Shown here: in pieces, positions 3,149 to 60,277 of the stretch | How positions within the stretch are numbered: position 1 is the first letter of the stretch | How the letters are laid out: every line of letters begins with the position of its first letter | Assembly (NCBI RefSeq): GCF_002854065.1 | Contig: NZ_CP024153.1 | DNA from: Escherichia coli | Lineage (GTDB): Bacteria; Pseudomonadota; Gammaproteobacteria; Enterobacterales; Enterobacteriaceae | Direction: 5' to 3' (one strand) | Length of the DNA: 64,000 nt | The notes under the pieces: model-generated | The model's database searches: none | What the model saw: only the letters and a program-made list of their open reading frames with translations | Told to the model about the DNA's origin: nothing | Program-made: the position numbers and the translations under genes

Positions 3149-3961
<813 letters not shown>

Positions 3962-4160
3962 TTGAGGGCTATCTGTCACAGATTTAAGGGTGGTTCGTCA
4001 CATTTGATCTGGAAAGTTGAGGGTGATTTGTCACAGTTTTGCTGTTCCCTCCCTGGCATCCTGCGCTTACTCATAGTTTTTTTGGCTGTAACCGGTAGTG
4101 GAGCCAGAATTGAGGGCAATTTGTCACCCTATCCTGAGGGTAGTTTGTCACACTAGATTT
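3962..4160. repeat. incC-like iteron array downstream of repE
   Basis: Repeated gagggt/caatttgtcac motifs (reverse-oriented ori2-type iterons), cut by IS1 at 4175. Confidence 0.7.
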
Positions 4161-4174
4161 TCTCCCTCTTCCCG

Positions 4175-4600
4175 GGTAATGGTGCCAACTTACTGATTTA
4201 GTGTATGATGGTGTTTTTGAGGTGCTCCCGTGGCTTCCATCTCCATCAGTTGTCCCTCCTGCTCAGCTACTGAAGGCGTGGTGCGTAACGGTAAAAGTAC
4301 TGCCGGACATCAGCGCTATCTCTGCTCTCACTGCCGTAAAACATGGCAGCTACAGTTCACTTACACCGCCTCTCAGGCCGCAGTCGGTAAACTCACGCAT
4401 ACAACCGGGCAGTGACGTCATTGTTTGCGCGGAAATGGACGAACAGTGGGGTTACGTCGGCGCTAAATCACGCCAGCGCTGGTTGTTTTACGCGTATGAC
4501 AGGATACGGAGGACGGTTGTGGCACACGTCTTCGGTGAACGTACTATGGCCACGCTGGAGCATCTTCTGAGCCTGCCGTCGGACTTTCAGGGCGCGTGGT
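4175..4600 (+). mobile_element. IS1 remnant (left IR, truncated insA, part of insB; 3' end degenerate)
   Basis: IR ggtaatggtgccaacttactgat at 4175; InsA frame diverges after FTYT; InsB frame diverges after ...GERTMATL. Confidence 0.7.
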
Positions 4601-17678: not shown

Positions 17679-18498
17679 GGCACTGTTGCAAATAGTCGGT
17701 GGTGATAAACTTATCATCCCCTTTTGCTGATGGAGCTGCACATGAACCCATTCAAAGGCCGGCATTTTCAGCGTGACATCATTCTGTGGGCCGTACGCTG
17801 GTACTGCAAATACGGCATCAGTTACCGTGAGCTGCAGGAGATGCTGGCTGAACGCGGAGTGAATGTCGATCACTCCACGATTTACCGCTGGGTTCAGCGT
17901 TATGCGCCTGAAATGGAAAAACGGCTGCGCTGGTACTGGCGTAACCCTTCCGATCTTTGCCCGTGGCACATGGATGAAACCTACGTGAAGGTCAATGGCC
18001 GCTGGGCGTATCTGTACCGGGCCGTCGACAGCCGGGGCCGCACTGTCGATTTTTATCTCTCCTCCCGTCGTAACAGCAAAGCTGCATACCGGTTTCTGGG
18101 TAAAATCCTCAACAACGTGAAGAAGTGGCAGATCCCGCGATTCATCAACACGGATAAAGCGCCCGCCTATGGTCGCGCGCTTGCTCTGCTCAAACGCGAA
18201 GGCCGGTGCCCGTCTGACGTTGAACACCGACAGATTAAGTACCGGAACAACGTGATTGAATGCGATCATGGCAAACTGAAACGGATAATCGGCGCCACGC
18301 TGGGATTTAAATCCATGAAGACGGCTTACGCCACCATCAAAGGTATTGAGGTGATGCGTGCACTACGCAAAGGCCAGGCCTCAGCATTTTATTATGGTGA
18401 TCCCCTGGGCGAAATGCGCCTGGTAAGCAGAGTTTTTGAAATGTAAGGCCTTTGAATAAGACAAAAGGCTGCCTCATCGCTAACTTTGCAACAGTGCC
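17679..18498 (+). mobile_element. IS26 copy A
   Basis: 820 bp, 14-bp IRs ggcactgttgcaaa; tnp26 17742-18446 (234 aa, G at residue 184). Confidence 0.95.
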
Positions 18499-47648: not shown

Positions 47649-48470
47649 GGCACTGTTGCAAAGTTAGCGATGAGGCAGCCTTTTGTCTTATTCAAAGGCC
47701 TTACATTTCAAAAACTCTGCTTACCAGGCGCATTTCGCCCAGGGGATCACCATAATAAAATGCTGAGGCCTGGCCTTTGCGTAGTGCACGCATCACCTCA
47801 ATACCTTTGATGGTGGCGTAAGCCGTCTTCATGGATTTAAATCCCAGCGTGGCGTTGATTATCCGTTTCAGTTTGCCATGATCGCATTCAATCACGTTGT
47901 TCCGGTACTTAATCTGTCGGTGTTCAACGTCAGACGGGCACCGGCCTTCGCGTTTTGAGCAGAGCAAGCGCGCGACCATAGGCGGGCGCTTTATCCGTGT
48001 TGATGAATCGTGGGAATCTGCCACTTCTTCACGTTGTTGAGGATTTTACCCAGAAACCGGTATGCAGCTTTGCTGTTACGACGGGAGGAGAGATAAAAAT
48101 CGACAGTGCGGCCCCGGCTGTCGACGGCCCGGTACAGATACGCCCAGCGGCCATTGACCTTCACGTAGGTTTCATCCATGTGCCACGGGCAAAGATCGGA
48201 AGGGTTACGCCAGTACCAGCGCAGCCGTTTTTCCATTTCAGGCGCATAACGCTGAACCCAGCGGTAAATCGTGGAGTGATCGACATTCACTCCGCGTTCA
48301 GCCAGCATCTCCTGCAGCTCACGGTAACTGATGCCGTATTTGCAGTACCAGCGTACGGCCCACAGAATGATGTCACGCTGAAAATGCCGGCCTTTGAATG
48401 GGTTCATGTGCAGCTCCATCAGCAAAAGGGGATGATAAGTTTATCACCACCGACTATTTGCAACAGTGCC
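47649..48470 (-). mobile_element. IS26 copy E with frameshifted transposase (1-bp insertion); N184 variant
   Basis: tnp split into ORFs 47991-48425 and 47701-48024; extra a in gggaatctgcc versus gggatctgcc in other copies; RIINATLG. Confidence 0.9.
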
Positions 48471-48586
48471 TAAAAATCGACCATACAGAGAGGGAAACCA
48501 CCGGAGTGGTGGGAAAAGCAGAAAGGCTCACGTGGCATAAGGCGTGGACAATGGTATCGACTGGTTTTTCAATTTCCTATACGTGA
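48471..48586 (+). mobile_element. IS1294-like terminal fragment (tnp-distal end only, about 116 bp)
   Basis: Identical to 1495-1610; ends ...cctatacgt followed by gaac. Confidence 0.85.
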
Positions 48587-48673
48587 ACTATTGAAGTAAT
48601 CAATCAAATTTTATAGGCTGATAGCCAAGTAACAACCACCAATGATATGCCAGGTAAAATCAGGGGACGTAAA

Positions 48674-50110
48674 ATGAGTACTCTTGATGTTCAGAAGCTC
48701 AAGGATGATGCCGTCGAATGGGCCTTAACTCATGGTGTTGCTTTCAAGGAATCGTCGTATTCCGCAGTGCATACCCCGTTTACCCTGACACCAACACCTA
48801 TCAGCCGTAAATCCTATCAGTACTTAAAGAATGCAACAGGAATACTCAGCAAATTAATCTATTCAGTTTCTGAGGATCATGATTTTTTGTACTCTGCGAT
48901 TTATCCCATCAAGGCCGGGAATGCCTTCTTTTCAGCCCTCCTGAACATGCATCAACAAATCCATTCATCATCAAGGCATGCTCCTCGATTACCATTACTC
49001 ATTATGCGTAGCGACTTTATGGATGATAATCGTGATGGGTTCAGGCTTATAGAGTTCAATGGTATAGCTGCAGGAATGGGGCCGTTTGGTCAGCGGATAC
49101 ATGATCTGCATCACTATCTACAACGGCAATATCCCGCTGTCTTTTCTGATTTATCGAATCAGGCAACAGGGGCGCTTGTCGACAATCAAGCGATCGAAGG
49201 GTTATCAGCAGCGATTTGTCAGGCAACTTGCAGAATTAAGCAGGAGTTCGGAGACCCCGGCCCTGCCAGGTTCCTGATGATTGTGCAGGAGAATGAAAAT
49301 AATGTGTTTGATCAACACTTGCTTGAGCTCGCCCTCCAGCAAAAAGGAATCGAAACGCATCGCAGGACTTTTCGTGAACTGCATAATCAATTGAGTACAG
49401 GCGCCGACAACAGGCTCATTCTCGAGGGTGTAGGCCCACTTGATACCGTCTACTTACGTGCCGGATATCAGTATTCTGATTATGAAGCATTCAATATCGA
49501 TGAGCAGGAGTGTTGTCAGGCGCTGATGGCGACCCGAGTATTCATTGAGCAGCACCGGGTTGCAGTGAACGCCACAGTTGGCCAGCAACTGGCGACCAGC
49601 AAGCGAGTACAAATGCTGCTCTCGCAATTGGGTTACGACGAGTTTGTCGCATTTGGATTAACACTGCAGGAAGCTAAAATAGCAAAAACGATACTGGGTG
49701 AGATGTTACCCATCAGCCCGGATAGTATCAACCTTGCAAAAGAGTCTCCTTCGGAAACCTGGGTTCTCAAAAATCAGGGTGAAGGCGGGGGGCATTGTCT
49801 GTTTGGTGCGGATATCCTGACAAAACTGACGGAACTCACTCCACAACAATATCAGTCCTGGTCGCTGATGCGCCGTTTACACCCTCAGCCCCGAGCTATG
49901 CCCACCTTGATTGTGCGTAAAGGGGAGTTGCATAAGGTGAATGATTTGATAAGCGAACTTGGAATGTTCTCCGTGCAGACAGATAACAATCCCTCCAGTG
50001 CTGAGCACAGTTTTGCTGGATATCTAATTCGTAGCAAATCAGCTGAATCGACAGAGGGAGGGGTCCATAGTGGACAAGGTGTTTTAGACTCGCTGGTATA
50101 CAGCGATTAG
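48674..50110 (+). CDS. Eukaryotic-type glutathione synthetase homologue (ATP-grasp)
   Basis: MRSDFM, IEFNGIAAGMGPFGQR, VFDQHLLELAL...IETHRRTFREL, YLRAGYQYSDY, WVLKNQGEGGGHCLFG glycine-rich loop; alternative upstream ATG at 48647. Confidence 0.75.
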   Translation: MSTLDVQKLKDDAVEWALTHGVAFKESSYSAVHTPFTLTPTPISRKSYQYLKNATGILSKLIYSVSEDHDFLYSAIYPIKAGNAFFSALLNMHQQIHSSSRHAPRLPLLIMRSDFMDDNRDGFRLIEFNGIAAGMGPFGQRIHDLHHYLQRQYPAVFSDLSNQATGALVDNQAIEGLSAAICQATCRIKQEFGDPGPARFLMIVQENENNVFDQHLLELALQQKGIETHRRTFRELHNQLSTGADNRLILEGVGPLDTVYLRAGYQYSDYEAFNIDEQECCQALMATRVFIEQHRVAVNATVGQQLATSKRVQMLLSQLGYDEFVAFGLTLQEAKIAKTILGEMLPISPDSINLAKESPSETWVLKNQGEGGGHCLFGADILTKLTELTPQQYQSWSLMRRLHPQPRAMPTLIVRKGELHKVNDLISELGMFSVQTDNNPSSAEHSFAGYLIRSKSAESTEGGVHSGQGVLDSLVYSD

Positions 50111-50460
50111 TCCCTTTCAAGGGGGCTGAAATCTGGTTATATGAAAGCATGCGGTAAGTGGTGTTTTAGCCCCAGTGGAGATGATGCTGTTTCTAGACTG
50201 AGTCGTAGTAAGCTAATAATAGTATTATAAATGAAGCCATGAGGGTATTTACAGGGCATATCTTATTAAGGGAACAACAGCAAAAACTGCTGCTATAAGA
50301 GGCTGCACCCAAAGTTCTTCAAGGTTCACATCATCGCTGCTGGGTCGATGCTGTTTCAGTTACGGGTCAATTTTCAATACCATTAGCTGTTCCTGTGACT
50401 ACGGTCATTACGCGCTGTCGACATCAATTTGTACAGCAAACAGTCTTAGCGTGGGATATT

Positions 50461-51787
50461 TAATGAGATGGTCACTCCCTCCTTCCCGGTACTATGCTGA
50501 GGATAGGCTTTCATTCGGAGAACTATCATGGAAAACATTGCGCTCATTGGTATCGATCTGGGTAAAAACTCTTTCCATATTCATTGCCAAGATCGTCGCG
50601 GCAAGGCTGTTTACCGTAAAAAATTTACACGGCCAAAGTTAATCGAATTTTTGGCGACATGCCCCGCTACAACCATCGCAATGGAAGCCTGTGGTGGCTC
50701 TCACTTTATGGCACGCAAGTTGGAAGAGTTGGGGCATTTTCCTAAGCTGATATCACCACAATTTGTCCGTCCATTCGTTAAAAGTAACAAAAACGACTTT
50801 GTCGACGCCGAAGCTATTTGTGAAGCTGCATCGCGTCCGTCTATGCGTTTTGTACAGCCCAGAACTGAATCTCAGCAGGCAATGCGTGCGCTGCATCGTG
50901 TCCGTGAATCCCTGGTTCAGGATAAGGTAAAAACAACCAATCAGATGCATGCTTTTCTGCTGGAATTTGGCATCAGCGTTCCACGAGGAGCTGCCGTTAT
51001 TAGCCGACTGAGTACCCTTCTTGAGGACAATAGTTTGCCTCTATACCTCAGCCAGTTATTGCTGAAATTACAACAGCATTATCACTATCTTGTTGAGCAG
51101 ATTAAAGATTTGGAATCCCAGTTGAAACGAAAGTTGGACGAAGATGAGATTGGACAGCGCTTGCTGAGCATTCCCTGCGTCGGAACACTGACAGCGAGTA
51201 CTATTTCAACTGAGATTGGCGACGGGAAGCAGTACGCCAGCAGTCGTGACTTTGCGGCGGCAACAGGGCTAGTGCCTCGACAGTACAGCACGGGAGGTCG
51301 GACGACATTGCTGGGAATTAGTAAGCGAGGTAACAAAAAGATCCGAACTTTGTTGGTTCAATGTGCCAGGGTATTCATACAAAAACTGGAACACCAGTCT
51401 GGCAAATTGGCCGATTGGGTCAGGGATCTACTGTGTAGGAAAAGCAACTTTGTCGTCACTTGTGCTCTGGCAAACAAGCTGGCCAGAATAGCCTGGGCCC
51501 TAACGGCACGACAGCAAACTTATGTAGCATAACGGCAGAAATACACCGGTTTAAAGAATCACTGATCTGGTTTTGCGAATACTGATATTGATGATACTAA
51601 CGGCCCACCGGCCTGTTGAGGAACCTGTAAAACGGAAAGGCTCATTGAAGCCGTATATTTTCTGGAGGTTCATCAGGCGCGGAACTCATCGAGGCGCGGG
51701 AATAAAATCCCATTCAGACGCCGGATAGATTCAAGCAAGCCAATTTATCGTCAAAATCGGTGTTGCAAAAACGGGAGTGACCATAGA
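50461..51787 (+). mobile_element. IS5075/IS4321-like copy 2, inserted in a Tn3-family 38-bp IR
   Basis: 1327 bp; flanks reconstitute IR ggggtccgcttggaaaacgga|IS|aaatatcccacgctaag; tnp 50528-51532. Confidence 0.85.
50528..51532 (+). CDS. IS110-family transposase (IS5075-type)
   Basis: Identical 334-aa protein to 9655-10659. Confidence 0.85.
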   Translation: MENIALIGIDLGKNSFHIHCQDRRGKAVYRKKFTRPKLIEFLATCPATTIAMEACGGSHFMARKLEELGHFPKLISPQFVRPFVKSNKNDFVDAEAICEAASRPSMRFVQPRTESQQAMRALHRVRESLVQDKVKTTNQMHAFLLEFGISVPRGAAVISRLSTLLEDNSLPLYLSQLLLKLQQHYHYLVEQIKDLESQLKRKLDEDEIGQRLLSIPCVGTLTASTISTEIGDGKQYASSRDFAAATGLVPRQYSTGGRTTLLGISKRGNKKIRTLLVQCARVFIQKLEHQSGKLADWVRDLLCRKSNFVVTCALANKLARIAWALTARQQTYVA

Positions 51788-51919
51788 TTCCGTTTTCCAA
51801 GCGGACCCCGTGCTGTGTGGAAATCCGCCCACCTTGCCGGGCGCCGGTGCTGTGTGGAAATTCGCCCATCTTCATGACAAAAATTTGTCAAATGACAGGC
51901 TCATGTGTGCTGATTTATG

Positions 51920-52601
51920 TCAGACGGGATTTTGCTTATCAATTATTGAGAACAGAAATTTTCCTGAATCATCAATACTATACTTAGCAAGTAAAGGTGT
52001 TTTCTCATTTATCTGCTTGAGAGCAGGATCAAGGAAAGATCGTTTCAACTCTGCCAAGTTCTTCTGTTGGGATTCCGGCAAAAGGAAACGGTCATTTAAC
52101 CAAGCATGAGTAGTAACCCATAAGCCTGAAGATTTGAATTGAGCAAGACTTTCATAAAGGCGGATCGTCCGTGGATTTCGAAGACTGCCACAATCGCGGA
52201 GCGAGTAGGTGGTGAACTGGTTCGTCAGGCCGTAAATGTACCGCAGGAGTTTATGGTTAAATTCGATTTCCCAGATACCACGAGCTGATCGGCTGCCAGC
52301 CTCTGTTAGCCAGGGGCGCGCGACGCAGTCAAAACTCCCTTCTTTCGGGTAAAAGATTACCGCAGAACGGCTTAACTCAAACACGCCTTCTTTAACATCC
52401 TTGATAGCCTGGTTACGGCTTACCTGAAAAATTTGCTGATAGTCAGCCACCTTTACTTTGAAAGTAGAGTCACCGAGTACAGCCATCTCATCATCATCTT
52501 CGCTTACTGAAGCTGTGAAATACGTCTGCATAAGACATAACCAGAGAACGCGCTTTGCTTTTAGCGAGAGGTAGTAAGCAGCTTCGGTAAGCTCGTTAGA
52601 C
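51920..52601 (-). pseudogene. Rep_3-family (RepE-like) replication initiator, 5'-truncated by IS26
   Basis: ...[23 protein letters not shown]... (parallels Rep[22 protein letters not shown]); frame enters IS26 right end. Confidence 0.65.
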
Positions 52602-53421
52602 GGCACTGTTGCAAAGTTAGCGATGAGGCAGCCTTTTGTCTTATTCAAAGGCCTTACATTTCAAAAACTCTGCTTACCAGGCGCATTTCGCCCAGGGGAT
52701 CACCATAATAAAATGCTGAGGCCTGGCCTTTGCGTAGTGCACGCATCACCTCAATACCTTTGATGGTGGCGTAAGCCGTCTTCATGGATTTAAATCCCAG
52801 CGTGGCGTTGATTATCCGTTTCAGTTTGCCATGATCGCATTCAATCACGTTGTTCCGGTACTTAATCTGTCGGTGTTCAACGTCAGACGGGCACCGGCCT
52901 TCGCGTTTGAGCAGAGCAAGCGCGCGACCATAGGCGGGCGCTTTATCCGTGTTGATGAATCGTGGGATCTGCCACTTCTTCACGTTGTTGAGGATTTTAC
53001 CCAGAAACCGGTATGCAGCTTTGCTGTTACGACGGGAGGAGAGATAAAAATCGACAGTGCGGCCCCGGCTGTCGACGGCCCGGTACAGATACGCCCAGCG
53101 GCCATTGACCTTCACGTAGGTTTCATCCATGTGCCACGGGCAAAGATCGGAAGGGTTACGCCAGTACCAGCGCAGCCGTTTTTCCATTTCAGGCGCATAA
53201 CGCTGAACCCAGCGGTAAATCGTGGAGTGATCGACATTCACTCCGCGTTCAGCCAGCATCTCCTGCAGCTCACGGTAACTGATGCCGTATTTGCAGTACC
53301 AGCGTACGGCCCACAGAATGATGTCACGCTGAAAATGCCGGCCTTTGAATGGGTTCATGTGCAGCTCCATCAGCAAAAGGGGATGATAAGTTTATCACCA
53401 CCGACTATTTGCAACAGTGCC
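52602..53421 (-). mobile_element. IS26 copy F (N184 variant)
   Basis: 820 bp; tnp26 52654-53358; RIINATLG. Confidence 0.95.
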
Positions 53422-53490
53422 GATTAGAGCACTATAAAGAACTAAAGAAATGAAGATACAAAGATACGAATATCTGAATAAAAACAGAAA

Positions 53491-53620
53491 AATGCGTACC
53501 CATCCACCTTTCAGTGCGTACCCATCCACCTTTCAGTGCGCAGCCATCCACCTTTCATGAAAATTACAGTGCGTACCCATCCACCTTTCAGTGCGTACCC
53601 ATCCACCTTTCATTTTGAGG
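53491..53620 (+). repeat. Iteron array: five tandem 22-bp direct repeats plus a sixth degenerate copy
   Basis: (a/g)tgcg(t/c)a(c/g)ccatccacctttca repeated contiguously, no spacers. Confidence 0.8.
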
Positions 53621-53783
53621 CGACAAAAAACAACACCTATCTTAATGAAATTATTGATAAAAAAACTGGCACAATGTTTGCAGAATAAGTTAGAGTAAGT
53701 TAAAGATCTTAAAGTAGATCTACCGATCTACATTTAAGATCTTAAAAACAAGAAGTTTAATAAGCAAAAAAACACAAAAAATC

Positions 53784-53831
53784 TGTGGATAACTTTGCTC
53801 AAAACAAAAAATTCACACTACCTGTGGATAA
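53784..53831. promoter_or_regulatory. Two DnaA boxes in an AT-rich stretch (origin-like)
   Basis: tgtggataa at about 53784 and about 53823. Confidence 0.6.
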
Positions 53832-54474
53832 CTTTGCGTAAACCCAGAGGACAGATCACTCTGAACCAAGACAACCACACATAAAAACAATATGCTCGCT
53901 TTTTAACCACTGCGCGTAATTGCCTGATGTTATCCCTGTGCTGTTCCGCTTCCTCGCTCACTAACTCGCTACACTCGGTCGTTCGGCTGCGGCGAGCGGT
54001 GTCTCCTTTCTCAAAACCAGAAGAGTTCAGATCATACGATCCGTTGATTGATCCTTTTTGGATCTTTCACTGAGAAGCCCTGAATCGCTTTCTAACGCTT
54101 TGTTCGATGTAACCATGAGGAAAACCATGTGAAATCGAAAAAATCGCTCAGAATGCGATACAGCGCGTTTTAGAGGGTATTTACAAAACAGTCGTTGCCT
54201 TGAGGAAATTTTGATCAAGATTGAACTCCTATCCGGATCATGGCAACAGATCACAGCAACAAGGCCGCTAAAAAGCGTTGAGCGGCGTTAAAAACCGTTA
54301 AACCGTAGCTGACTATAACGAAACGGGAAAAAACGCTCAGAACGCGTTACAGAGCGTTTTAAGGCGATGTCGGAAAGAGCCATACCTCACCTGTTCTGAT
54401 GTTTTTCTCAACACAAGCACTTTTAAGAGTACTTTTAAAGATGCTATTATGCCAATAAGACAAGCGGAGGACTT

Positions 54475-54726
54475 ATGAGCTATCAAATTCTGACAACCAC
54501 AGCGGCCAGTATTACTGACCTGAAAAAAAATCCTATGGGAACCGTAGCTGAAGGTGAAGGGGACGCTGTTGCGATCCTGAACCGAAACGAACCGGCGTTC
54601 TATTGCGTTCCACCAAAACTTTACGCCTACTATCGGGAACTCGCTGAAGATGCTGAGTTAAACGCTGTTGCTGATGAGCGCATGAAAAACCCGGAAATTG
54701 TGAAGGTTAACCTGGATGACCTATGA
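54475..54726 (+). CDS. stbD: StbD/RelB-type antitoxin (Phd/YefM family)
   Basis: 83 aa MSYQILTTTAASITDLKKNPMGTVAEGEGDAVAILNRNEPAFYCV... Confidence 0.8.
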   Translation: MSYQILTTTAASITDLKKNPMGTVAEGEGDAVAILNRNEPAFYCVPPKLYAYYRELAEDAELNAVADERMKNPEIVKVNLDDL

Positions 54727-54997
54727 ACTGGCTTTTGACCGCAGAGCACTGAAGGAATGGCAGAAACTCGGCCACACCATCCGTGAACAATTCAAAAAGA
54801 AGCTGGCAGAACGGCTGGAAAATCCACGCGTACCCGCAGCCCGGTTACATGGTCATGCTGATCGCTATAAAATCAAACTTCGTGCATCTGGCTACAGACT
54901 TGTATATCAAGTCATTGATGAGAAAGTCGTTTTACTCGTTATTGCTGTTGGAAGAAGGGAAAGCAGCGAAGTTTATCAGATTGCAGATATGCGCTGA
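54716..54997 (+). CDS. stbE: StbE/RelE-type toxin
   Basis: 93 aa MTYELAFDRRALKEWQKLGHTIREQFKKKLAERLENPRVPAARL...; overlaps stbD stop. Confidence 0.8.
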   Translation: MTYELAFDRRALKEWQKLGHTIREQFKKKLAERLENPRVPAARLHGHADRYKIKLRASGYRLVYQVIDEKVVLLVIAVGRRESSEVYQIADMR

Positions 54998-55183
54998 ACT
55001 GAAACCCGCCCCGTAATTCGCGGCTGCAGCCGCTCAGACGCGCAGATGCTACACACCGTCACGGCGTACCGTTCGCAAGCTTACGCGCTAACTGCGAAAG
55101 GCTAATTGCGTGTTGTTAGTCCGGTAATGGGCTTTGCAGGGAGGGGGGATGTCCCTGATCTTAATTAAGCTGGTTTGTTTCCG

Positions 55184-55326
55184 GGCACTGTTGCAAAGTT
55201 AGCGATGAGGCAGCCTTTTGTCTTATTCAAAGGCCTTACATTTCAAAAACTCTGCTTACCAGGCGCATTTCGCCCAGGGGATCACCATAATAAAATGCTG
55301 AGGCCTGGCCTTTGCGTAGTGCACGT
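55184..55326 (-). mobile_element. IS26 fragment (right IR and 3' end of tnp26), cut by IS1294
   Basis: ggcactgttgcaaagttagcg... to ...gcgtagtgcacg then IS1294 end. Confidence 0.85.
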
Positions 55327-57006
55327 ATAGGAAATTGAAAAACCAGTCGATACCATTGTCCACGCCTTATGCCACGTGAGCCTTTCTGCTTTTCCCACCA
55401 CTCCGGTGGTTTCCCTCTCTGTATGGTCGATTTTTATACCGTAACAGGCTGTTTTTTATACTTTCACCGATTCCCGGGCACACTTAGCCTGTGTCAGGCC
55501 GGCATATACCTCAGTAGACTGATATCCCGCGCGTTTTTCTTCAGCCCTGATACATTCAGCCCCGCAATGGCCCGGCGGTATACCATCCGGCAGCCACACA
55601 GCACGCATTCGAACGGGTCACGACTCAGGAACTGTTTCACCATTTGTGCATAGCACACTTTCGCCACTGGTTCCGGTTTATCCATCCCCAGTGCACGGTA
55701 CACCTGCGGCAGCTTCTCTCCACACACACGGTTGGCAAGGAACCCGAAGTACCTCACCATCTTAAAAAACTTCTCCGGGATGTGCTGTTTCAGCCTCGCG
55801 ACCAGCTCACGCTGTGTCAGCGTTTCCGTCGCCGTTTCTCCCGTTTTGTGGTCCAGGTAACGGAAGCTCAGGCTTGCCCCTCCGTTGTAATGAGCCAGTC
55901 GGGAAGCCGCTATTGGTGGCTTCTTCAGATAACGACCCAGGTAGCGTGCCGTATTCCGCCCTCCGGCTGTCTTCTTCGACATGTACACATGCCAGTATTT
56001 TCCGCCGGATTTCAGCACCAGGCTTCTCCACTGTGATTCCGTCGTGATATGTGACAACGACTCCGGCATTGCCATCCCCTCTGACCACGCTTTCAGAAGC
56101 AGCTGCCGCATATTCCACATCCACCGTGAACGCATCGCGTCTTTCAGGAAGCTCAGCTTTTTCCACTGACCATGCTTATTCAGACCTCCACAGGTTACAG
56201 ACACATGTACATGCGGATGCCAGTTGAGACGACGGCCATACGTGTGGATGGCGCAGAAGATACCGGGTTCCAGCCCCCGTTTTCGGGCGGCATACAGCAG
56301 ATTCTCCACCGCCAGACGGCACACGTCATTCAGCAGCCAGCGGTTGCTTTCGAACACCGGCCACAGCGTGTCCGGCAGGGTGAAGACCAGATGTACCCAG
56401 TCGCAGTCAGGAAGACGATTCAGCTGTGTTGCTGTCCACAGGTCTGTGGCCTTCTTTCCGCAGGACGGGCAGGCACGGCTGCCGCATGAGTTGGTCAGGT
56501 ACTTTACGTGCTGACAGTCCGGGTTATCACACCCGAACTCTTTTACACCCAGTATCCGTGTGCCGCAGGCCAGCATTTTGGTGACGGCTTCAACCTCGAT
56601 ATCGCGCAGACCGCCCGCATCCAGGAAGGACGTCCAGCACTGGTTGGCTGTGAACAGACGTTTCAGAGGGCGGGGAGTAAAACCGGACAACATGAGGATG
56701 GATTAAACCCCGGTATCCTGTAGCAGGGTAAGGGCTGCTGTATCGCCACGGCGCTTCAGGATGGAGGTCGTCACCATCGCAGGTGGTGGGTCCATGGGTT
56801 TGAGCATTTTCATCCAGTCCCATTCTCGTTGTGAGAGCTTCTCAGCACCAACAGAGAGCAGAACTGTATCGATACTTTTGCGGGTCAACATAAGGGGATG
56901 AGTCCTTAATAAAACAGGTCCTCAGAGCATACATATTCTGCGGGGCGTGCGGCAACAACAGGACGAACCGGGGCGGTTTTCAATTTGCAGCCGCCAGGCT
57001 GCCGTG
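55327..57006 (-). mobile_element. IS91-family IS (IS1294-like), copy 3; outer boundary approximate
   Basis: Inverted duplicate of 1-1610; outer end assumed near the IS50 junction at about 57006. Confidence 0.75.
55494..56693 (-). CDS. tnpA: IS91-family transposase
   Basis: Identical 399-aa protein to 240-1439. Confidence 0.85.
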   Translation of the reverse strand: MLSGFTPRPLKRLFTANQCWTSFLDAGGLRDIEVEAVTKMLACGTRILGVKEFGCDNPDCQHVKYLTNSCGSRACPSCGKKATDLWTATQLNRLPDCDWVHLVFTLPDTLWPVFESNRWLLNDVCRLAVENLLYAARKRGLEPGIFCAIHTYGRRLNWHPHVHVSVTCGGLNKHGQWKKLSFLKDAMRSRWMWNMRQLLLKAWSEGMAMPESLSHITTESQWRSLVLKSGGKYWHVYMSKKTAGGRNTARYLGRYLKKPPIAASRLAHYNGGASLSFRYLDHKTGETATETLTQRELVARLKQHIPEKFFKMVRYFGFLANRVCGEKLPQVYRALGMDKPEPVAKVCYAQMVKQFLSRDPFECVLCGCRMVYRRAIAGLNVSGLKKNARDISLLRYMPA

Positions 57007-59457: not shown

Positions 59458-60277
59458 GGCACTGTTGCAAATAGTCGGTGGTGATAAACTTATCATCCCC
59501 TTTTGCTGATGGAGCTGCACATGAACCCATTCAAAGGCCGGCATTTTCAGCGTGACATCATTCTGTGGGCCGTACGCTGGTACTGCAAATACGGCATCAG
59601 TTACCGTGAGCTGCAGGAGATGCTGGCTGAACGCGGAGTGAATGTCGATCACTCCACGATTTACCGCTGGGTTCAGCGTTATGCGCCTGAAATGGAAAAA
59701 CGGCTGCGCTGGTACTGGCGTAACCCTTCCGATCTTTGCCCGTGGCACATGGATGAAACCTACGTGAAGGTCAATGGCCGCTGGGCGTATCTGTACCGGG
59801 CCGTCGACAGCCGGGGCCGCACTGTCGATTTTTATCTCTCCTCCCGTCGTAACAGCAAAGCTGCATACCGGTTTCTGGGTAAAATCCTCAACAACGTGAA
59901 GAAGTGGCAGATCCCACGATTCATCAACACGGATAAAGCGCCCGCCTATGGTCGCGCGCTTGCTCTGCTCAAACGCGAAGGCCGGTGCCCGTCTGACGTT
60001 GAACACCGACAGATTAAGTACCGGAACAACGTGATTGAATGCGATCATGGCAAACTGAAACGGATAATCAACGCCACGCTGGGATTTAAATCCATGAAGA
60101 CGGCTTACGCCACCATCAAAGGTATTGAGGTGATGCGTGCACTACGCAAAGGCCAGGCCTCAGCATTTTATTATGGTGATCCCCTGGGCGAAATGCGCCT
60201 GGTAAGCAGAGTTTTTGAAATGTAAGGCCTTTGAATAAGACAAAAGGCTGCCTCATCGCTAACTTTGCAACAGTGCC
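59458..60277 (+). mobile_element. IS26 copy G (N184 variant)
   Basis: 820 bp; tnp26 59521-60225; RIINATLG. Confidence 0.95.

Follow-up and report, generated by a model that had tools for sequence, protein, structure and literature searches.

Introduction

IS26-truncated IncN repA genes accompanied by 37-bp iterons and gshB have been described in resistance plasmids (PMC6052338, PMC10654068). Among F33:A-:B- plasmids they form a module consisting of IS26, an IS1294 fragment, gshB, an optional IS5075, the 37-bp iterons, truncated repA and IS26 (PMC6052338). The 37-bp repeats are the RepA-binding iterons of IncN plasmids (PMC9412624, PMC6052338; both cite Papp and Iyer 1995). An IncX1 segment, ddp3-bis-repX-pir-stbDE, has likewise been described together with its downstream aph(3')-IIa and Tn6010 (oqxAB) region (PMC6052338, PMC10654068). 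IncX1 plasmids normally have five iterons upstream of repX/pir, and stbDE is part of their backbone (Burmolle et al., PMC3402527).

Here, we analyzed a 64,000-nucleotide stretch of Escherichia coli contig NZ_CP024153.1 (assembly GCF_002854065.1), hereafter the window. An initial annotation had noted an iteron-type origin separated by IS26 from a 5'-truncated Rep_3 gene at 51920-53840, leaving open whether the two parts derive from the same replicon. All of these elements are present where they had been placed, and only the iteron count required correction. Our comparisons indicate that the locus is very probably a mosaic, in which two unrelated, disabled iteron replicons share one IS26 by chance.

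Truncated IncN repA and its module

The rep fragment to the left of IS26 (51920-52601, minus strand) corresponds to an IncN repA without codons 1-13 and encodes RepA residues 14-239 plus the stop codon. Its protein shares 100% identity with residues 14-239 of R46 RepA, and the fragment together with its downstream repeats shows 99.5-99.7% DNA identity to R46, the IncN reference plasmid. Domain analysis revealed Pfam matches to Rep3_N (9.7e-28) and Rep3_C (1.5e-9), representing both winged-helix domains (WH1 and WH2), while the closest solved structure is F RepE (PDB 1REP, 6e-28), with an alignment that starts at RepE residue 21. The earlier description of a 5'-truncated RepE-like rep fragment is therefore accurate: the Rep_3 domains are present, and 13 codons are missing relative to R46 RepA. 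IS26 replaces the first 38 bp of repA and everything upstream, and the remainder is an incomplete gene that has neither a start codon nor a promoter of its own.

In R46, the region upstream of repA contains a 22-bp iteron (AAGGTGGGCCAATTCCCATAAC) in 4.8 copies as well as an A+T-rich stretch and a site resembling a DnaA box, and the gene is followed by 6.5 tandem copies of a 37-bp repeat. A search of the whole window recovered neither the 5' end of IncN repA nor the upstream 22-bp iterons. The locus thus lacks the functional IncN basic replicon as it exists in R46, where upstream 22-bp iterons, an A+T-rich region and a DnaA box stand beside repA.

Of the IncN 37-bp iteron array, the final 1.6 units remain downstream of the fragment (51807-51872, minus strand); they contain RepA-type cores (AAGGTGGGCGGATTTCCA) at 51818-51835 and 51855-51872. 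No other IncN-type cores (AAGGTGGGCnnATTYCCA) occur in the whole window. The pair of 23-bp direct repeats reported previously is real; both lie within this interval at a spacing of 37 bp and represent the cognate IncN repeats.

The iteron array adjoins an IS4321/IS5075-type element of the IS110 family (50462-51787, plus strand; limits derived from the uninterrupted pSTM6-275 sequence), whose transposase gene at 50528-51532 matches the Pfam domains DEDD_Tnp_IS110 and Transposase_20. Farther to the left lies gshB (48647-50110, plus strand), a passenger open reading frame (ORF) annotated as glutathione synthase in pE80 and pSTM6-275 and described in PMC6052338. The left boundary of the module is an 822-bp IS26 copy (47649-48470, plus strand) in which two 1-bp insertions break tnp26. 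As one part of a mosaic reading that we hold with high confidence, the left side represents the end of an IS26-bounded, IncN1-derived module comprising IS26, gshB, IS4321/IS5075, the 37-bp iterons and repA without its 5' end.

The IS26 copy between the two parts

The IS26 that joins the two parts (52602-53421, minus strand) is 820 bp long, is bounded by GGCACTGTTGCAAA terminal inverted repeats and carries an intact tnp26 (longest ATG-initiated ORF, 238 aa) transcribed toward the repA fragment. It is identical to the window copy at 59458-60277. Its flanks, CGTTAGAC and GATTAGAG, differ from each other, in agreement with the earlier observation that they form no 8-bp duplication, and the target-site duplication of a simple insertion is accordingly absent. 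A reciprocal 8-bp flank was not found at any of the six other full IS26 copies or the two IS26 fragments in the window.

Two IS26 variants, told apart by three SNPs, occur in the window. These SNPs were considered as a marker of the crossover point and set aside as uninformative, the same variant adjoining repA in another plasmid; they do not discriminate between the routes of formation discussed below.

The IncX1 origin and its missing initiator

To the right of IS26, an A+T-rich IncX1 sequence of ~25% GC (53422-53491, plus strand) separates the junction from the first of five 22-bp IncX1 iterons (53492-53612, plus strand), which are arranged as three copies, an 11-bp spacer and two further copies. 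Scanning for GTGCGTACCCATCCACCTTTCA returned exactly five matches at ≤3 mismatches, with 0 expected by chance; they start at 53492, 53514, 53536, 53569 and 53591 and carry 1, 0, 2, 0 and 0 mismatches, respectively. The initial annotation had listed these five plus a sixth, degenerate copy. The five were recovered, whereas the sixth was not found on either strand of 53422-54000 in a scan allowing up to 7 mismatches.

Beyond the iterons, an A+T-rich stretch of 23-32% GC (53613-53783, plus strand), with four GATC sites between 53705 and 53741, is the probable DNA-unwinding region; the same GC range extends across 53610-53820. A sequence scan located two perfect DnaA boxes (TTATCCACA) on the minus strand at 53784-53792 and 53823-53831, in line with the boxes noted earlier to the right of the iterons. 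Perfect boxes number 3 in the whole window, versus 0.38 expected. Separately, a primosome-assembly-like hairpin at 53935-54010 was rejected, its fold energy being no better than that of shuffled sequences.

Comparison with IncX1 plasmids revealed 100% identity to p3-H9 over 53422-55870 and 97.5% identity to the IncX1 archetype pOLA52 over 53423-54995. The five iterons and two DnaA boxes recur in both plasmids, in pOLA52 at the same positions; the iteron array is identical to that of p3-H9 and near-identical to that of pOLA52, whose fourth copy is one base off. In several IncX1 plasmids, the iterons and DnaA boxes are 100% identical to those of the window and lie upstream of a pi-type pir gene. 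The segment therefore has the features of an IncX1 (pOLA52-type) origin, namely five 22-bp iterons with flanking DnaA boxes and an A+T-rich region. On the same well-supported mosaic reading, the complete cis-acting IncX1 origin very likely survives in the window along with stbDE.

The initiator gene does not survive with it. In p3-H9 and pHNAH8160R, a gene for a 279-aa initiator begins 181 bp beyond (to the left of) the point at which the window is joined to IS26, and this pir product matches R6K pi (PDB 2NRA, E 1.2e-51). Judging from intact IncX1 plasmids, the lost 181 bp include a degenerate sixth iteron with 6 mismatches as well as one more site containing ATCCACCTT, and they probably correspond to the pir promoter/operator region. 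IS26 would have replaced this region along with pir itself and the rep/bis genes beside it. A tblastn search of the window with IncX1 Pir retrieved only the IncN RepA fragment (22% identical) and no pir, and a search for a second IncX1 rep gene in the window was also negative. A functional IncX1 replicon, with its cognate pir beside the iterons, is not present.

Downstream of the origin, stbD (54475-54726, plus strand) and stbE (54716-54997, plus strand; ParE_toxin, 3.3e-14), the type II toxin-antitoxin pair of the IncX1 backbone, are both intact. IncX1-derived sequence extends as far as a 142-bp IS26 fragment (55184-55325, plus strand). Beyond this fragment lie IS1294, aph(3')-IIa, IS26 and the oqxAB region, known from pOLA52-related and F33 plasmids.

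One replicon or two

To place the two junctions among known plasmids, exact junction-spanning 120-mers were searched in PLSDB. The complete repA|IS26 120-mer occurs in 213 records, pSTM6-275 among them, and the complete IS26|iteron 120-mer in 27. The two junctions have independent histories. The IncHI2 plasmid pSTM6-275 carries both, on two different, inversely oriented IS26 copies; the paper on this plasmid (PMC5923156) does not mention the remnants. A single IS26 carrying both junctions was found neither in PLSDB nor in a set of 5,426 complete E. coli genomes.

A single iteron replicon interrupted by IS26, with the rep fragment and the iterons cognate to each other, would account for the Rep_3-like order of the locus (DnaA boxes, A+T-rich region, iterons, then a minus-strand rep) and for the fact that both initiator lineages belong to Rep_3. 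It would also fit the 7-mer AAGGTGG, the only element common to the otherwise different IncX1 iteron (as reverse complement) and IncN 22-bp iteron. However, no 8-bp duplication surrounds IS26, and the flanks match different plasmid groups at 97-100% identity. Intact IncN plasmids have other iterons upstream of repA, and intact IncX1 plasmids have, at the corresponding place, a pi-type gene whose product is 24% identical to RepA (E 4e-10). The independent occurrence of the junctions in 213 and 27 plasmids argues in the same direction. Judged by these sequence comparisons, the single-replicon explanation is already refuted, and we assign it almost no probability.

Sequence matches accordingly place the halves of 51920-53840 in different replicons, the rep fragment being assigned to IncN and the iterons to IncX1. 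The literal description given by the initial annotation holds, while the shared origin that it had allowed for does not. It had named, as the observation that would speak against its proposal, iterons of a replicon family whose Rep is unrelated to the fragment; this is what we found at the level of incompatibility groups, with the initiators remaining distant relatives in the Rep_3 superfamily at the 24% identity given above.

Formation of the pairing

Recombination between IS26 copies, or conservative insertion of a translocatable unit, leaves no target duplication. Both junctions would have existed beforehand and been brought together later via IS26, for which two routes can be proposed. In the first, homologous recombination would have occurred between two IS26 copies; one inversion in a pSTM6-275-like molecule would yield exactly this order. 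In the second, Tnp26 would have mediated conservative insertion of a translocatable unit, consisting of one IS26 plus 48471-52601, beside an IS26 that already abutted the IncX1 origin. The direct IS26 copies at 47649 and 52602 fit the translocatable-unit route.

They are the simplest routes, given that each junction was already widespread and that no target duplication flanks the IS26. We infer that the pairing is a by-product of either IS26 recombination or translocatable-unit insertion.

Functional potential of the two relics

Both relics appear disabled, because the IncN part lacks a promoter, a start codon and the upstream origin elements, and the IncX1 part lacks an initiator. Neither is predicted to initiate replication in cis, and the plasmid is presumably maintained by other replicons. 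A candidate for this role is the intact repE (Rep_3) at ~3254-3922 (about 3.2-3.9 kb), which is annotated as repE in the matching plasmid p2017.15.02CC_1, typed in PLSDB as IncFIA, IncFIB and IncX1.

The reading frame of truncated repA continues into the end of IS26 and forms a 242-aa ORF there; its TTG start, at 52648, lies 6 nt past the tnp26 stop codon on the same strand. In pSTM6-275, PGAP annotates the same IS26::repA fusion ORF as a replication initiation protein. A search for promoters reading from the IS26 end into truncated repA found none that was convincing, with fewer sites than the shuffle expectation, and the sole minus-strand promoter-like match lies inside the repA fragment gene. 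With both winged-helix domains kept and the ORF located downstream of tnp26, some expression of truncated RepA is nevertheless conceivable.

This fusion raises the question of whether the junction could be a working chimeric replicon, in which IS26::RepA, produced by tnp26 read-through, would act on the IncX1 iterons or on the two residual 37-bp repeats. The position of the TTG relative to tnp26, the intact winged-helix domains, the PGAP label, an alignment to RepE that begins at residue 21 and implies little loss of fold, and the AAGGTGG half-site common to the iterons would all suit such a replicon. Against it, the fragment has no promoter-like site directed into it from the IS26 end, the remainder of the iteron differs between IncN and IncX1, and the initiators are 24% identical. 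Moreover, nothing is left of the IncN A+T-rich region, DnaA box or 22-bp iterons, and the repA|IS26 junction has many other right-hand flanks, which indicates that the pairing is not the conserved part. A chimeric replicon is therefore highly improbable. It is just as doubtful that the fusion ORF, whose junction occurs in at least 213 plasmids, is expressed as a DNA-binding factor that acts in trans in IncN incompatibility or copy control, or that might even cross-activate the IncX1 iterons.

Returning to the reading of two disabled relics, the IncX1 part could still be responsive in trans. The gamma origin of R6K is functional when pi is provided in trans, and iterons that have been cloned are known to cause incompatibility. 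By analogy, pi from another molecule would be expected to act on the window's set of iterons, A+T-rich region and DnaA boxes, which could then serve as a conditional origin or an IncX1 incompatibility determinant. The origin would fire, or titrate pi and thereby cause incompatibility, only with pi provided by an IncX1 plasmid. The stbDE pair, for its part, may stabilise the plasmid that carries it.

Such properties would allow the IncX1 piece to be retained as useful, through stabilisation by stbDE and through iterons serving as an IncX1 exclusion/incompatibility determinant or a pi-dependent conditional origin. Consistent with this, stbD and stbE are intact. So is the origin, whose iterons, A+T-rich region and DnaA boxes show 100% identity to functional IncX1 plasmids. 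In addition, the IS26|ori-stbDE block recurs in at least 27 plasmids, among them large IncHI2 plasmids from several countries. However, the block adjoins aph(3')-IIa and the oqxAB transposon Tn6010, and hitch-hiking alongside selected resistance genes would account for its spread just as well. Retention for usefulness is thus possible, although we consider it unlikely.

Implications for typing and annotation

Remnants of this kind can yield IncN or IncX1 calls for plasmids that are unable to replicate as such. pSTM6-275, for example, which carries this same truncated repA, is typed IncN by PLSDB/MOB-suite, a call to which the remnant may contribute. Automatic annotation is similarly affected, in that the IS26-fusion ORF is labelled a replication initiation protein. 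More broadly, the locus is a record of how F-type and IncHI2 resistance plasmids have acquired IncN and IncX1 backbone pieces, along with oqxAB and aph(3')-IIa, through stitching by IS26.

Comparison with known systems

The left side closely resembles the IS26-bounded IncN1 remnants of F33:A-:B- and IncHI2 plasmids (pHNAH17, pHNFP460-1, pE80 and pSTM6-275), with matching gene content and order. The IS5075-type insertion just past the iteron array also agrees with the published description (PMC6052338). The window differs in retaining 1.6 copies of the 37-bp repeat, compared with ~5-7 in pE80 and pSTM6-275 (6.5 in R46), and in its repA, which in pE80 is cut 81 bp deeper. The right-hand neighbour of IS26 is likewise unlike that of IncN1 remnants in known plasmids.

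The right side corresponds to the IncX1 origin of pOLA52, with five 22-bp iterons, two DnaA boxes, an A+T-rich spacer and stbDE downstream, all as in the window. In contrast to pOLA52, the window has lost pir, the promoter region and the sixth, degenerate iteron. The gamma origin of R6K (IncX2) is the counterpart of the IncX1 origin and follows the same logic, with iterons bound by a pi-type Rep_3 initiator; the IncX1 iteron sequence in the window is, we assume, unlike the R6K iteron.

As in IS26 pseudo-compound transposons and translocatable units, two direct IS26 copies (47649 and 52602) bracket the IncN module. Unlike in typical pseudo-compound transposons, the left copy has a frameshifted tnp26 and, in place of a resistance gene, the two copies enclose replicon debris. 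The components and both junctions are therefore of already known kinds, namely IncN1 remnants, an IncX1 origin with stbDE and IS26 pseudo-compound structures. Only the exact repA|IS26|iteron pairing was without a match in the collections searched, and it is a trivial product of rearrangement. The locus shows no new replication mechanism; it is an IS26 scar between replicon leftovers, an ordinary feature previously described in multidrug-resistance plasmids.

Sequence features at the IS26 junction

The flanks of the IS26 copy at 52602-53421, CGTTAGAC (52594-52601) and GATTAGAG (53422-53429), have TTAGA in common and in register. In a record carrying intact IncX1 sequence (L002, 3994-4008), the junction point reads ACGTTA followed directly by GATTAGAG, and the 7-mer CGTTAGA occurs near the junction point in both parents. 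This sharing of TTAGA and CGTTAGA is probably due to chance, a 5-of-8 match having roughly p = 0.03 by our own estimate.

Comparison of IS26 copies revealed two sequence variants in the window, the copies at 17679, 33981, 37344 and 42769 versus those at 52602 and 59458, distinguished by three positions (207, 208 and 362, numbered from the 52602 end) and matched by different Tnp26 protein accessions in reference plasmids. The copy at 47649-48470 is 822 bp long and carries two single-base insertions that disrupt tnp26, its longest ORF encoding 156 aa; this break could represent either real inactivation or a sequencing error.

The IncX1 backbone between the origin and stbD

Within the IncX1 backbone, a stretch of about 60 bp (ttccgcttcctcgctcactaactcgctacactcggtcgttcggctgcggcgagcggtgtc, 53940-54000) closely resembles the sequence that adjoins the ColE1 origin in pBR322/pUC. 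We can only guess at a role in primosome assembly or single-strand initiation, since the fold of the DNA hairpin at this stretch is no better than the folds of shuffled sequences. The interval from the IncX1 origin to stbD also holds a pair of 42-nt direct repeats (54131-54172 and 54320-54361), 189 bp apart and 83% identical, each containing a short GCGnT...AnCGC palindrome.

A second initiator gene and the IncN remnant

An intact Rep_3 initiator gene with 31% identity to IncN RepA is located on the plus strand at about 3254-3922 and is a candidate for a working replicon inside the window. The gene is annotated as repE in the matching plasmid p2017.15.02CC_1, to which PLSDB assigns the replicon types IncFIA, IncFIB and IncX1.

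At 51788-51810, the insertion point of the IS4321/IS5075-type element adjoins the IncN iterons, and the reverse complement of the adjoining sequence, GGGGTCCGCTTGGAAAACGGAA, is repeat-like in appearance. The same off-target insertion beside IncN iterons is on record (PMC6052338).

The IncN repA remnant may mislead both annotation and replicon typing, as exemplified by the IncHI2 plasmid pSTM6-275, in which PGAP labels the IS26-initiated 242-aa fusion ORF (3638-4366) a "replication initiation protein" and which PLSDB/MOB-suite types as IncN.
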